A DNA stretch of 64,000 nucleotides from Trueperaceae bacterium (GTDB lineage: Bacteria; Deinococcota; Deinococci; Deinococcales; Trueperaceae), in assembly GCA_034521815.1 (NCBI GenBank), contig JAXHLW010000013.1, forward strand, positions 1,344,001 through 1,408,000, in the 5' to 3' direction. Positions 52,484 to 57,086 of the stretch are shown here, one piece after another. Below the pieces are notes generated by a model. That model made no database searches. It had not been told where the DNA came from and saw nothing but the letters and a program-made list of their open reading frames with translations. Within the stretch, counting starts at the first letter, position 1. Each line of letters begins with the position of its first letter. Position numbers and translations under genes: made by a program.

Positions 52484-53764
52484 ATGCGCGATGCCACCGA
52501 ATATCGACGTCTTGCCGCGACGCTGCGTTGGTCTGGCCTCTTCGCCGCGGCCATCTTCGTCGTGGGCCTCACCGCCTGCAGCTCGCCGTTCGAGGGGTTC
52601 ACGCCCGACACCCAAGCGCCGACCCTGTACCTGTCTGGCGTGAGCGACGGCGACGTCATCACCACCAGCGAGGTGACGCTCACGGCCGTCGCGACCGACG
52701 ACCGCGGTGTCGCCTCCGTTCGTTACAGCGTTAATGGAAGCACGACGACCGCCTGCGACGCCTTCGGCGGCGACACCTGGTCGTGCGCCTCGATTCCGCT
52801 GACCATCGGAGCCAACACCATCGAAGTCACGGTCCGCGACGACGCCGGGAACGCTACGTCGCGCTCGCTCACCGTCTACTACCAGCCGCCCACGGACGCG
52901 TCCGGGTTCAACATCGAGGTCGTGTACTTCGACCAGTCCTACAGCGCCAGCCAGCTCGAAGCGTTCCAGCTCGCTGCCGACCGTTGGGAGAGCATCGTCG
53001 TCGGGGACCTCGAAGGCTTCCCCCTGAACCAGCCCGAGGGCGGCAGCTGCAATGTCGGTGAACCCGCCTACGACGACACCGTCGACGACCTGCTGATCTT
53101 CGTCACCAGCTTCACCGACGAAGCGGGCGGGCTACTCGGCGAGGCCGGCCCCTGCCTCAGTCGAACCAACGGCGACGACGCCGGCACCAACGCCGTGGGC
53201 TACATGCGGTTCGACACCGAAGACCTCGACGTCCTCGAAGCGGACGGCAACCTCGTCGAGACGATCGTGCACGAGATGGGCCACGTCCTCGGCATCGGAA
53301 CGAACTGGGAGTGGTCCTACCACGACCTTCTCGACTACCAGGCGAGCGGCAGCTCGCCGGACTGCGCGAACGCCGGTGGCTTCGTCACACCGCCCAGCTA
53401 TACCGGAACGAGCGGCAGAGACGCCTGGCTGGATCTGGGCGGATGGGGTCGGCTCCCTGTCGAAGAGTCGGGCGGGCTCGGCACGCAGTGCGGGCATTGG
53501 GACGATGCGACGTTCGGGAACGAGCTCATGACCGGCTTCCTCGATGGCGGCATGGTCAATCCGCTCAGCCAGCTGACCGTCCGCTCCCTCCGAGACATCG
53601 GCCTCACTGTCGACGTCTCCGCGGCCGATCCGTACACCCTCCCTTCCGGCGCTTTCCTGAGAACCCAAGGCGGCTTCGACATCGCCGCCGCCGAGATTCT
53701 GGTCCCGGCACGAGGCACCATCGACCCCGCCACCGGCGAGATCGTCATCTTCCCCGACCGCTAG
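52484..53764 (+). CDS. Lipoprotein with Ig-like domain and leishmanolysin (M8)-like zinc metallopeptidase domain
   Basis: Lipobox LTAC; Ig-like [16 protein letters not shown]...[71 protein letters not shown]. Confidence 0.8.
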
Positions 53765-53842
53765 CGAAGACCGCAGCCCAGCCCGCTTCCACCGCGTCCC
53801 CTGTCATTCGAGTGGGTCGCGGTGGTGTGGTAGGAACGGGCC

Positions 53843-54256
53843 ATGCACGCCCACCACGTCGCCGCCGTCGCCGTCCTCGTCATCCGGGACGGTCGCGTCC
53901 TGGCACTGCGGCGCTCACGAAACAAGGACGCCGCGCCCGGCGTGTGGGAGGCCCTCTCGGGCCGGCTGGAGCCGGGCGAGGATCCGCACCCCGCCGCGGT
54001 TCGCGAGGCGCTCGAGGAGACCGGGCTGACCGTGGACGTCGAGCGCAGGCCGTGGACCGCGTACGCCGCCGACCGCGCGGGCGAGCCGATGCTGGTGGTC
54101 GTGTACCGAGGGACCCCCGTCGCCGGCGAGCTGACGCTCAGCGACGAGCACGACGACCACGCCTGGCTGGACGCCGACGCGTTCGCGGCCAGGAGTCCGC
54201 TGACGGCGCTGGTCGAGGCGGTCAGGACGGCGCTTGCGGCGCCCGCGCCACGGTAG
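53843..54256 (+). CDS. NUDIX hydrolase
   Basis: Nudix box [33 protein letters not shown]. Confidence 0.88.
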
Positions 54257-54363
54257 TCGTCCGCACCGCCTGCCCGCCATCGCGAACGTCGATCGGTCAC
54301 CCGCACGCGATCTCCGTCCGACGACGGAGGACGGAGTCGACGGCGCGTCGTACGCTCGCCGGC

Positions 54364-54690
54364 ATGATCATCACGACCACCTCCACCCTGCAGGACCGAT
54401 CCATCGCCGACTATCTGGGCCTCGTCTCCGGCGAGGCGATCCTGGGCGCCAACGTGTTCCGCGACTTCTTCGCCGGCATTCGCGACATCGTCGGTGGGCG
54501 CAGCGGCGGCTACGAGCGCTCGCTGCGCGAGGCGAAGGAGATCGCGATCCGCGAGATGGAGGTCGCCGCCCGCGAGCTGGGGGCGGACGCGGTGATCGGC
54601 ATCGACCTCGACTACGAGAGCATCCAGTCGGGCTCCGGCGGCAGCATGCTGATGGTGTCGGCGTCCGGCACGGCGATCCGGCTCGGCTGA
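54364..54690 (+). CDS. YbjQ/UPF0145 family protein
   Basis: [51 protein letters not shown]...[13 protein letters not shown]...[10 protein letters not shown]. Confidence 0.93.
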
Positions 54691-54721
54691 CCTGAACTCG
54701 GCTGACCTGAACGACGACGCT

Positions 54722-54750
54722 TTGACACCGCGCCCTGCACGGGCTAGGCT
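54722..54750 (+). promoter_or_regulatory. Sigma-A promoter of the aspS leader
   Basis: TTGACA (54722-54727), 17-bp spacer, TAGGCT (54745-54750). Confidence 0.8.
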
Positions 54751-54757
54751 CCGTGGC

Positions 54758-54844
54758 ATGCTCGCCCTGGGCCCCCACCTCGCGTACCGCACCGTCCCGA
54801 ACCTTCGGGACGACAATTCGCGTGTGGGGGGCCTCGGGGCGTAG
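54758..54844 (+). CDS. Putative leaderless attenuator leader peptide (28 aa, Asn/Asp cluster)
   Basis: MLALGPHLAYRTVPNLRDDNSRVGGLGA*. ATG lies 7 nt after the -10 box; AAC CTT CGG GAC GAC AAT at 54800-54817. Confidence 0.6.
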   Translation: MLALGPHLAYRTVPNLRDDNSRVGGLGA

Positions 54845-54866
54845 GGCGCCGTCGATCGACGCGTTG

Positions 54867-54897
54867 GACCCCCGGGGCTCGGCTCCGGGGGTCTTTT
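54867..54897 (+). terminator. Intrinsic terminator (attenuator) in the aspS 5' leader
   Basis: GACCCCCGGGGC-TCG-GCTCCGGGGGTC-TTTT, downstream of the promoter and 38 nt before the aspS ATG. Confidence 0.8.
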
Positions 54898-54935
54898 CGT
54901 TGGATCGGTCCGCGAGCCCAGGAAGGTAGGTCGGC

Positions 54936-56225
54936 ATGAACGAGGACGGAAGCGAACGAACGCTGACGCGCGAGCTCCCCGCGCACGACGGGGCTCGCGT
55001 CACGCTGCGCGGCTGGGTGCACGCCCGCCGCGACCTGGGCGGCGTGCAGTTCCTGGTGCTTCGGGACAGGACCGGCGCGGCGCAGTGCGTGTTCCACGGC
55101 ACCGAGATCCCTTTGCAGGAGTCGTGCGTCGAGGTCGGCGGCACGGTCGCCGCCTCGCCCAAGGCGCCCGGCGGGTTCGAGGTCCAGGCCGACCACCTGC
55201 GCATCCTGAGCCAGGCGACCGAGCCGACGCCGGTCGAGATCTCGAAGGAGAGCTGGAACGCCAATCCCGACACCCTCCTCGCCTACCGGCACGTGACGGT
55301 TCGCGGGCTCGAGGCGCAGGCGATGCTGAAGGTGCAGGCCGAGCTGGTCGGGGCGTTCCGGGCGTACCTGGACGCCGAGGCGTTCACCGAGATCTTCACG
55401 CCGAAGCTGGTCGCGGCCGGCGCGGAGGGCGGCGCCGACATGTTCGAGGTGGACTACTACGGCAAGCGGGCGTACCTGGCGCAGTCGCCGCAGCTGTACA
55501 AGCAGATCATGATCGCGGTGCACGAGCGGGTGTACGAGACCGCGCCGGTCTGGAGGGCGGAGGCGTCGCACACCACGCGGCACCTGGCCGAGTACCTCAG
55601 CCTGGACGTCGAGCTGGGCTTCATCGACGACGACGGCGACGTGATGGACCTGCAGGAGGCGCTGCTGGGCTCGATGATGCGCCGCGTCGGCGAACGCTGC
55701 GCCGCGGAGCTCGCGCTGCTTGGCGCCGAGGTGCCCGACGTGACCGACCGGTTCCCCCGCATCGAGCTGCTCGAGGCCCGGAAGCTGGTCGAGGAGCGCT
55801 ACGGCCACGCGCCTGGCGGCAAGGACCTGGACCCCGAGGCCGAGCGGCTGCTGGGCCGCTGGGCCAAGGAGGAGCACGGCAGCGACTTCGTGTTCGTGAC
55901 CCGCTACCCGCAGGCGGCGCGCCCGTTCTACACCTACCCGACCGGCGACGGCCTGACGCGCGGCGTGGACCTGCTGTTCCGCGGGGTCGAGATCACCTCC
56001 GGCGGCCAGCGCGTGCACGAGCACGACGTGCTGGTACGCGAGCTCGAGAAGCGCGGCATGGATCCGCGCCGCTTCGAGGGCTACCTCGAGGTGTTCAAGC
56101 ACGGCATGCCGCCGCACGGCGGGTTCGCGATCGGAGCGGAGCGGCTCACCGCCCTGCTGCTGGGGATCCCCAACGTCCGCTTCGCCCGGGCGTTCCCGCG
56201 CGACGGGAGTCGGCTGCAGCCGTAG
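54936..56225 (+). CDS. aspS: Aspartate--tRNA(Asp/Asn) ligase, short archaeal-type non-discriminating AspRS
   Basis: 429 aa. OB-fold GWVHARRDLGGVQFLVLRDRTG and SPKAPGGFEV, AYLAQSPQLYKQ, motif 2 WRAEASHTTRHLAEY, EITSGGQR, motif 3 GMPPHGGFAIGAERL, AFPRD. Confidence 0.92.
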   Translation: MNEDGSERTLTRELPAHDGARVTLRGWVHARRDLGGVQFLVLRDRTGAAQCVFHGTEIPLQESCVEVGGTVAASPKAPGGFEVQADHLRILSQATEPTPVEISKESWNANPDTLLAYRHVTVRGLEAQAMLKVQAELVGAFRAYLDAEAFTEIFTPKLVAAGAEGGADMFEVDYYGKRAYLAQSPQLYKQIMIAVHERVYETAPVWRAEASHTTRHLAEYLSLDVELGFIDDDGDVMDLQEALLGSMMRRVGERCAAELALLGAEVPDVTDRFPRIELLEARKLVEERYGHAPGGKDLDPEAERLLGRWAKEEHGSDFVFVTRYPQAARPFYTYPTGDGLTRGVDLLFRGVEITSGGQRVHEHDVLVRELEKRGMDPRRFEGYLEVFKHGMPPHGGFAIGAERLTALLLGIPNVRFARAFPRDGSRLQP

Positions 56226-56343
56226 CGGCGCATGAAGCCGACCGGGCGACCGGCCGCCTGCGCACGTGGCCACGCCGGTCGGGTTCGCGACGTAGACTAG
56301 ATCGTCCGTCCGTCCCGTCGTCCACCTTCGCTAGGGAGGAACC

Positions 56344-56988
56344 ATGCTTCGAGCCCTCGCCGTCGCTACCGCCGGCCTCGCCCTTCTTCTGGCCGCCTGC
56401 GCGCCCACGACCGCAACGTCGGGCGCCGACCTGTCGGCTCTCGACGCCGCCTGCGCCACCGAGCCAGCGCCCGTCGTCGCGGTGGTCCAGTTCGAGAACA
56501 CCACCGGCCGCTTCGGCACCACCGTCACGGGCGTCGAGGAGGCCGCGACCGCGCGCCTGATCACGCTGCTCAAGGAGAGCGGCTGCTACGACATCGTGGA
56601 GCAGAGCGAGCTGCAGAACGTGATGATGCAGCAGGGCCTCGAGTCGATGGAGCCCGAGGCGCTGGCCCGCGCCGCCGGCGCCGGCTACGTGATCACCGGT
56701 ACCGTCACGCGCGCCACGATCGCCGAGCCGGGCGTGTCGGTGTTCGGCGTCAGCCTGGGCGAGACCCGTGCGGACGTCGAGGTGGACGTGAGAGCCACCG
56801 ACATCATCACCGGCTCGATCGTCGTCTCCGAGACCGGTACGGGGACCGCCACGAGCCCGAACATCGCCGTCGACCGCATCCCGGCCGGCCGGATCGCGTA
56901 CGACGACCCGACCGTCGGACCGATCCTGGCCGACGCGTCGGCCGCGGCCGTGCGCGAAGTGGTGGCCTTCATCCGCGCCGAGTTCTGA
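56344..56988 (+). CDS. CsgG/HfaB-family lipoprotein
   Basis: Lipobox LAAC; VVAVVQFENTTG, LITLLKESGCYDIVEQSELQNVMMQQ, GAGYVITGTVT, VEVDVRATDIITGSIVVS; GGGAGG RBS. Confidence 0.75.
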   Translation: MLRALAVATAGLALLLAACAPTTATSGADLSALDAACATEPAPVVAVVQFENTTGRFGTTVTGVEEAATARLITLLKESGCYDIVEQSELQNVMMQQGLESMEPEALARAAGAGYVITGTVTRATIAEPGVSVFGVSLGETRADVEVDVRATDIITGSIVVSETGTGTATSPNIAVDRIPAGRIAYDDPTVGPILADASAAAVREVVAFIRAEF

Positions 56989-57086
56989 TCGAGCCGGCGC
57001 CGACCAAGCCGGCCCTAACGTGCGCGGCGCCTGCCTCCCGGCGGGCGCCGCGCACGCTTGGATCCGCCGCCGAAACCTGAGGCGGC

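Follow-up and report, generated by a model that had tools for sequence, protein, structure and literature searches.

Immediately upstream of aspS2, the gene for a non-discriminating aspartyl-tRNA synthetase (AspRS), we found a compact element that is very probably a leaderless, ribosome-mediated leader-peptide transcription attenuator reading both Asp and Asn codons. It lies in a 64,000-nt stretch of DNA from a Trueperaceae bacterium (GenBank assembly GCA_034521815.1, contig JAXHLW010000013.1, positions 1,344,001 to 1,408,000 of the forward strand), which we refer to as the window. Between a YbjQ-family gene and aspS2 there are, in order, a promoter, an ATG, a 28-codon open reading frame (ORF), an intrinsic terminator, and a ribosome-binding site. 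A first-pass annotation of the window had named the promoter, ATG, ORF, terminator, and aspS, and each was found where it had been placed. These parts can be read directly in the sequence, they are conserved in relatives, and the leader RNA has alternative predicted folds. The gene itself (54936-56225; coordinates are window positions, and all features described are on the + strand) encodes a 429-amino-acid (aa) aspartate--tRNA(Asn) ligase of the non-discriminating archaeal type, AspRS2. This class, which the first-pass annotation had also assigned, is confirmed by profile matches to NF003483 (550.7 bits, cut-off 353) and TIGR00458 (385.1 bits, cut-off 368.4).

The promoter consists of a -35 hexamer TTGACA (54722-54727, read from the sequence) and, 17 nt further 3', a -10 hexamer TAGGCT of the TANNNT type (54745-54750), which ends 7 nt 5' of the ATG at 54758. 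The leader ORF (54758-54844) comprises 28 codons plus the stop codon TAG (54842-54844) and is apparently leaderless, as no Shine-Dalgarno sequence can be read 5' of its ATG. Its translation is MLALGPHLAYRTVPNLRDDNSRVGGLGA, and its Asn and Asp residues are N15 (AAC, 54800-54802), D18 (GAC), D19 (GAC), and N20 (AAT), with no others. The last three codons form the regulatory cluster GAC GAC AAT (54809-54817), which includes AAT, a rare codon in this genome. A sigma-70 scan of 53000-57000 called 0 promoters; it misses this one because TAGGCT agrees with TATAAT at 3 of 6 positions only. Given the weak -10 match, support for the promoter call comes from its perfect -35, its TANNNT-type -10, and its conservation in relatives. 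Within the genus, this window included, TANNNT stands 7 nt before the start codon; in other families the gap is 6-12 nt. The same spacing had been attributed to many leaderless genes in the window; consistent with this, 19 window ORFs (≥100 aa, with high G+C at third codon positions [high GC3]) begin 6-8 nt after a TANNNT box, some of which may be internal starts. Downstream, aspS2 has a Shine-Dalgarno-like AGGAAGG (54920-54926), 9 nt 5' of its ATG, and no second TANNNT box can be read in the ~40 nt between the terminator and the aspS2 ATG.

The terminator hairpin (54866-54894) is built from 13 base pairs, of which 10 are G-C, and a T run comes after it; on its own it folds at -25.1 kcal/mol, and the region 53000-57000 contains 4 terminator-like sites against 0.5 expected from shuffles. 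The whole leader folds at -94.2 kcal/mol (z -5.15), and 0 of 200 shuffles were as good. We divide it into four segments. Segment 1 (54760-54778) is the 5' strand of the long leader hairpin in the minimum-energy fold and would act as anti-antiterminator by pairing with segment 2 in untranslated RNA. Segment 2 (54829-54842), the predicted 5' strand of the antiterminator, runs over the final codons of the leader into the first base of its stop. Segment 3 (54866-54878) is the 5' arm of the terminator, shared with the antiterminator, and segment 4 (54882-54897) is the 3' arm of the terminator, up to 54894, together with the T run.

Folded in silico, these segments alternate with ribosome position in the way that classical attenuation needs, which had been proposed as a check on the idea. 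Without a ribosome, the leader RNA pairs 54760-54778 with 54824-54846 and leaves 12 of 12 terminator pairs intact. The antiterminator fold of 54828-54881 reaches -35.6 kcal/mol, compared with -26.1 kcal/mol when the upstream part is shuffled (z -3.3); in it, 54829-54842 pairs with 54868-54880 and engages 11 of the 12 bases in the terminator's 5' arm. Placing the ribosome with the N20 codon in its A site (13 nt masked) leaves 0 of 12 terminator pairs in the full fold; placing it at the stop codon restores all 12 of 12. A scan of every codon (masks of 10-17 nt) always gave one terminator-free window inside D18-S21; narrower terminator-free windows also appeared near codons 1-3 and 9-12. The folds thus predict a terminator-excluding antiterminator that is freed when the ribosome sits at the regulatory codons and masked when it sits at the stop. 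With its codons positioned so that stalling would expose segment 2 and a ribosome at the stop would cover it, the modeled leader follows the four-segment logic of classical attenuation (1:2, 2:3, 3:4). The pairing of 54770-54778 with 54824-54833 put forward in the first-pass annotation is present in the minimum-energy fold, while the main antiterminator 5' strand is 54829-54842 and not only 54824-54833.

The minimum-energy fold also contains an inner hairpin (54793-54812), CGUCCCGA/UCGGGACG, with arms at 54793-54799 and 54806-54812 and a loop of ACCU. It had been thought to cover the regulatory codons; the hairpin exists, and it covers R17, D18, and the first base of D19 rather than the whole cluster. 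By eye, same-genus loci also have a CCCG...CGGG hairpin just 5' of the Asp codons. Whether it serves as a pause hairpin is a guess. A search of Rfam with cmscan (54300-55300, E up to 10) returned no T-box and no amino-acid leader family (Trp, His, Leu, Thr, or similar), and no Rfam family explains the leader. Four chance-level matches (mir-m107-1, Bcj14, anti-hemB, and v-snoRNA-1), all far under their gathering scores, were set aside.

In the mechanism that we propose, transcription would start at or adjacent to the ATG at 54758, so the leader ORF would be translated without a 5' untranslated region. With ample Asp-tRNA(Asp) and Asn-tRNA(Asn), the ribosome would reach the TAG at 54842 and its footprint would hide segment 2; segments 3 and 4 would then form the terminator, and RNA polymerase would stop ~40 nt short of aspS2. 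A shortage of charged tRNA(Asp) or tRNA(Asn) would make the ribosome stall at GAC-GAC-AAT, masking segment 1 and leaving segment 2 free to pair with segment 3 as the antiterminator, and transcription would continue into aspS2. In untranslated RNA, segments 1 and 2 would pair and the terminator would form. AspRS2 makes Asp-tRNA(Asn), and GatCAB turns this into Asn-tRNA(Asn), so by this route the loop would act as feedback on the tRNA-dependent supply of Asn-tRNA(Asn) and also on Asp-tRNA(Asp).

To follow the element in relatives, we used two sets of loci. The first set comprised 41 related genomes, and we took 450 nt upstream of each aspS2. The gene is present in 40 of the 41, from 22 genera and 5 families of one order, the exception being an 80%-complete genome. 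Leaders were detected by a rule that ignores amino-acid content: a TANNNT box must be followed after 5-12 nt by a start codon (ATG or GTG) that opens an ORF of 5 codons or more, and a G+C-rich hairpin has to begin 10-35 nt past the stop. By this rule, 36 of the 40 aspS2 loci have a leader, and by eye one more (L036) has the ORF plus a hairpin without a T run. The second set, of 80 loci, consisted mostly of Trueperaceae metagenome-assembled genomes (MAGs), plus Deinococcus pimensis and three outgroups; 72 loci had enough upstream sequence, 13 of these duplicated the first set, and 59 were new. The same rule found leaders at 42 of these 59. Among the rule-detected leaders, TTGAC occurs at the same distance from the -10 in 35 of 36 (first set) and 39 of 42 (second set). 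The element accompanies aspS2 while the genes upstream vary, and Asn/Asp leaders are present at the Deinococcus-type loci L028, L030, L031, L033, and L102. The first-pass annotation had called for such a comparison: a short Asn/Asp ORF plus terminator is kept across Trueperaceae, Deinococcus-type loci, and three further families, and this shared layout and Asn/Asp cluster support its interpretation of the element as an Asp/Asn attenuator.

Some of the loci missed by the rule are informative in other ways. By eye, three Deinococcales MAG loci (L104, L105, and L107) have a leader further upstream, and L108 is ambiguous. At the first three, ~100-260 nt upstream of aspS2, the arrangement is in tandem, with a second short ORF that has its own Shine-Dalgarno sequence and a second terminator. 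At L077, L092, and L096, a TTGAC...TGTTAGACT-type promoter, as in the leader-bearing L026, is joined directly to a seemingly leaderless aspS2 start; from this arrangement, the attenuator appears to have been lost there. No leader was found in several AT-rich genomes or at the Anaerolineae locus L121. In L122, a deltaproteobacterial MAG whose AspRS is 48% identical, an ORF of 13 codons, four of them for Asp and one for Asn, is located ~130-90 nt upstream, after a TTGAC box and with no clear terminator; it may be unrelated or a degenerate analogue. Altogether, this distribution suggests that the attenuator is conserved across the order and has been lost in some lineages.

The peptides themselves share little beyond the regulatory residues. 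The 78 leaders encode 76 distinct peptides of 7-45 aa, which are unlike between families save for the Asn/Asp cluster. Across the 76, Asn makes up 9.7% and Asp 12.2% of residues; Asn is present in 74, Asp in 74, and at least three Asn/Asp within 6 residues in 70. In the other two frames of the same DNA (first set), Asn and Asp together reach 2.6%. Asp and Asn codons across the leaders were counted as 99 GAC, 83 GAT, 92 AAT, and 52 AAC, and as the third codon positions vary, selection acts on the meaning of the codons. A GAYAAUU motif is retained even as nucleotides in many Trueperaceae. Trueperaceae leaders also have a conserved Leu-Gly-Ala ending, which is best read as the antiterminator RNA strand rather than a peptide motif.

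An AAT codon occurs in 72 of the 76 distinct leaders. Against this, the genome of the window is 71% G+C, and in its 1057 long high-GC3 ORFs, Asn is 1.6% and Asp 6.6% of residues, with AAT accounting for 5.4% of Asn codons (0.87 per 1000 codons). The genome has one tRNA-Asn(GTT) and one tRNA-Asp(GTC) gene; with a single tRNA-Asn(GTT), AAU is read by wobble. Reading these features together, we infer that the rare wobble-read AAU probably sharpens the response to Asn-tRNA(Asn).

The layout is also rare in the genome, and its parts coincide more than expected by chance. A strict scan of both strands of the 2.63-Mb genome required TTGACN and TANNNT 16-19 nt apart, a start codon (ATG or GTG) 5-9 nt beyond the latter, an ORF of 5-45 codons, and a terminator 5-45 nt past its stop; it returned 2 matches, one of which is the aspS2 leader. 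A relaxed genome-wide scan gave 11 candidates, and the aspS2 leader alone is Asn/Asp-rich.

The predicted switch was likewise followed in the relatives. In the co-transcriptional state before the 3' arm is made, the terminator 5' arm pairs upstream while the ribosome is at or before the Asn/Asp cluster, and this upstream pairing ceases a few codons past the cluster. The median distance from the first cluster codon to the start of the antiterminator 5' strand is 20.5 nt (at least 10 nt in 73 of 78 leaders), and from the last cluster codon it is 10 nt (78 leaders); the strand ends at a median of 4 nt after the first stop-codon base (within 12 nt in 62 of 78). The distance from stop to terminator is 15-35 nt in all 78 leaders, a range to be read with the fact that the hairpin was part of the detection rule. 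In a MAFFT alignment of 20 Trueperaceae leaders, the terminator and antiterminator strands fell out of register between rows, and covariation was judged from duplex energies, with shuffled and cross-pair controls, in place of the alignment. The duplex of the stop-codon region with the terminator 5' arm averages -17.2 kcal/mol, compared with -11.6 kcal/mol for shuffled strands (median z -1.95; 63 of 78 leaders below -1). An individual compensatory case is L018, which has UUGGGG/CCCCAA where most loci have CUCGGGG/CCCCGAG. Six RNA runs covered small shares of the stretch, and the metatranscriptome contigs of 4 of them, all from relatives and 90-97% alike, were placed on it. Two of these contigs span the terminator (54777-54900 and beyond, and 54806-54965); no RNA ends or regulation are visible in such contigs, DNA carry-over is possible, and they are given no weight here.

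The identity of the enzyme fits the codons in the leader. In Deinococcus radiodurans and Thermus thermophilus, a second AspRS and GatCAB make asparagine on tRNA(Asn) (PMC4206432, as far as its available text goes). Because asparagine is synthesized on tRNA(Asn) by these two enzymes, a leader that reads Asn and Asp codons is the expected feedback for AspRS2. The genome contains three related synthetases, bacterial-type AspRS, asparaginyl-tRNA synthetase (AsnRS), and AspRS2, and GatB is present as well. The bacterial-type aspS stands directly after hisS, and asnS starts 7 nt after a TAGACT box; among the three synthetase genes, only aspS2 has an Asn/Asp leader. An Asn_synthase (PF00733) homologue, in a 592-aa open frame (G000:C13:419329-420096), indicates that the organism may make free asparagine too; AsnA was not found in the assembly, which is 83.5% complete. 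With the PF00733 homologue present, we do not claim AspRS2 as the sole asparagine route in this genome.

Several results weigh against an Asp/Asn attenuator and have to be set beside this evidence. The transcription start, leader translation, stalling, and regulated termination are all things that we infer from sequence, and the terminator hairpin might also stop transcription coming from the ybjQ-type gene upstream. At equilibrium, the fold in most relatives retains the terminator at every ribosome position, so antitermination in those relatives would have to be kinetic. Covariation is weak: strands swapped between loci still pair at -15.3 kcal/mol versus -17.2 kcal/mol for cognate strands, because the G run and the C run are conserved. 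The element is dispensable, as 3 of 40 loci in the first set (L020, L021, and L024) have no leader and 17 of 59 in the second were missed by it; by eye, 13 of these 17, including the outgroups L121 and L122, have no such leader. Related genomes are not independent, so the leader counts show breadth and are not a statistical test. Among the leaders that were found, L023 and L034 have one Asn and no Asp, and L060 and L099 have Asp without Asn. Finally, with a PF00733 homologue and AsnRS present, Asn-tRNA(Asn) need not depend on AspRS2 alone.

Some of these points would also suit other explanations. If the small ORF or its RNA were an independent unit, either a micro-protein gene or a small RNA (sRNA), its terminator could serve the ybjQ-type gene as well, and aspS2 could be constitutive, through leaky readthrough or an unrecognised promoter, with no sensing of tRNA charging. 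The strength of the terminator (-25.1 kcal/mol), the lack of any other + strand terminator after the ybjQ-type gene, and the terminator-retaining equilibrium fold of most relatives are all in keeping with this, and attenuated leader transcripts can be sRNAs in other bacteria (PMC7968998, in the available text). However, the peptides vary in length and sequence save for their Asn/Asp codons, unlike a functional micro-protein, and the element goes with aspS2 although the upstream genes differ. Just ~40 nt, without a TANNNT box, separate the terminator from the aspS2 ATG. The stop-terminator distance is fixed, and a ribosome terminating at that stop would cover the antiterminator strand. We consider an independent unit improbable.

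A second alternative makes the ORF incidental and the leader RNA a site for a trans-acting factor: AspRS2 in autoregulation (as in E. coli thrS), uncharged tRNA in a T-box-like manner, or a metabolite in a riboswitch. What five families share, however, is the terminator, the G-rich strand, and the Asn/Asp reading frame, with no other RNA sequence or fold, and the Asp/Asn codons vary synonymously. Such a site would account for a leader that folds far better than its shuffles (z -5.15), for the inner hairpin that recurs in the genus just 5' of the Asp codons (by eye), and for GAYAAUU being kept at the nucleotide level in many Trueperaceae; yet the loop of that hairpin, ACCU, has no GUC or GUU anticodon-like triplet, and the Rfam search (E up to 10) matched neither the T-box nor any other family. 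This makes a trans-acting factor highly improbable. We give the least credence to stalling by a nascent arrest peptide or general translation stress, as opposed to the supply of Asp- and Asn-tRNA, since save for Asn/Asp no motif is conserved across families in peptides of 7-45 aa, and the regulated gene encodes precisely the enzyme charging tRNA(Asp) and tRNA(Asn). The precedent for it is that attenuators sensing a general slowing of translation exist, for example erm-type leaders (PMC2965389, in the available text). An attenuator responding to charged tRNA(Asp) and tRNA(Asn) is by far the most probable explanation.

To our knowledge, leader-peptide attenuation, although textbook regulation, is known for only a handful of amino acids. 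The classical enterobacterial attenuators trpL, hisL, leuL, thrL, and pheL are represented in Rfam as leader families. Like these, the aspS2 leader combines cognate codons clustered in a short ORF with an intrinsic terminator and a predicted antiterminator that would exclude it according to ribosome position (mechanism as in the available text of PMC4007540). Unlike them, its ORF is apparently leaderless and lacks a Shine-Dalgarno sequence, its codons are for Asp and Asn, its target is a tRNA synthetase rather than a biosynthetic operon, and it has no Rfam leader match. The E. coli pheST attenuator, with its pheM leader peptide, also sits before an aminoacyl-tRNA synthetase gene and senses the tRNA charged by that enzyme. 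The aspS2 leader resembles it in standing before a synthetase gene and would likewise sense tRNA that its enzyme charges; pheST differs in reading one amino acid from a leader with a ribosome-binding site, whereas the aspS2 leader would read two, of which Asn is made on the tRNA from the enzyme's product. T-box riboswitches before aspS and asnS in Firmicutes bind tRNA directly, and uncharged cognate tRNA relieves termination. The aspS2 leader would share the logic by which uncharged tRNA relieves premature termination, but its sensor would be the translating ribosome, and it has no T-box match.

The closest precedents are leaderless. In Deinococcus deserti, mapped transcription starts led to the prediction of 14 leaderless leader peptides preceding tRNA-synthetase and amino-acid genes; where the gene encodes a synthetase, the leader peptide begins right at the mapped start (de Groot et al. 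2014, PMC4007540, available text). The available main text of that paper names cysS and trpEGD only, with no occurrence of Asn, Asp, aspart, or asparag. The aspS2 leader is of the same leaderless kind, and its comparative and structural analysis is not in the available parts of PMC4007540. Mycobacterial leaderless polycysteine short ORFs (bioRxiv 10.1101/834739, available text) also have clustered codons of one amino acid and are attenuators of downstream genes; they differ from the aspS2 leader in phylum and amino acid. In the literature that we searched, including the available parts of PMC2965389 and PMC4833913, we found no Asn/Asp or aspS leader peptide and no attenuator for asparagine, aspartate, or a non-discriminating AspRS; table S9 of PMC4007540 or a 2010 study of aminoacyl-tRNA synthetase attenuation might list one. 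The first-pass annotation knew of no described attenuator of this kind. Given the 2014 prediction of leaderless synthetase leaders in D. deserti (PMC4007540, available text), novelty can lie at most in the Asn/Asp specificity, and for that part the statement may hold. Unless table S9 or the 2010 study already lists it, the aspS2 leader would be classical attenuation in leaderless form with a new specificity.

If correct, this reading shows how Deinococcota tune tRNA-dependent asparagine synthesis, with the cell gauging ribosome speed at Asn and Asp codons rather than free asparagine. It also provides a rule for annotating the short ORF upstream of aspS2, which is at present unannotated, and it illustrates how a rare wobble codon can be retained at a regulatory position in a 71% G+C genome. 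A broader interpretation, to which we give an even chance, is that the leader is an ancient, phylum-wide feedback sensor of the indirect (transamidation) route, in which the near-invariant rare AAU specifically reports Asn-tRNA(Asn) that GatCAB makes out of the product of AspRS2, and the Asp codons report the precursor. Such a sensor would be the first attenuator known to gauge an amino acid made on its tRNA.

The genes around the leader and aspS2 are of other kinds. The YbjQ-family gene upstream of the leader (YbjQ_1 domain, PF01906, 123.6 bits; 108 aa, 54364-54690) is unrelated to it; the gene starts 7 nt after a TACGCT box and is among the 19 candidate leaderless starts. Further upstream, 52484-53764 encodes a protein with leishmanolysin-like peptidase M8 and Big_13 domains, and downstream of aspS2 there is a CsgG-family lipoprotein gene (PF03783, 56344-56988).

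Elsewhere in the same genome, the second match of the strict scan (G000:C13:567704, + strand) consists of an apparently leaderless ORF of 12 codons, two of them for Phe, with a terminator after it. The gene 71 nt past this terminator reads as pheS from its first residues alone, and by its sequence the element is a candidate leader-peptide attenuator of pheST that would read Phe codons. Some 2 kb before this putative pheS, at G000:C13:565710 (+ strand), a 9-codon ORF follows a TANNNT box and is itself followed by a long hairpin and a T run.

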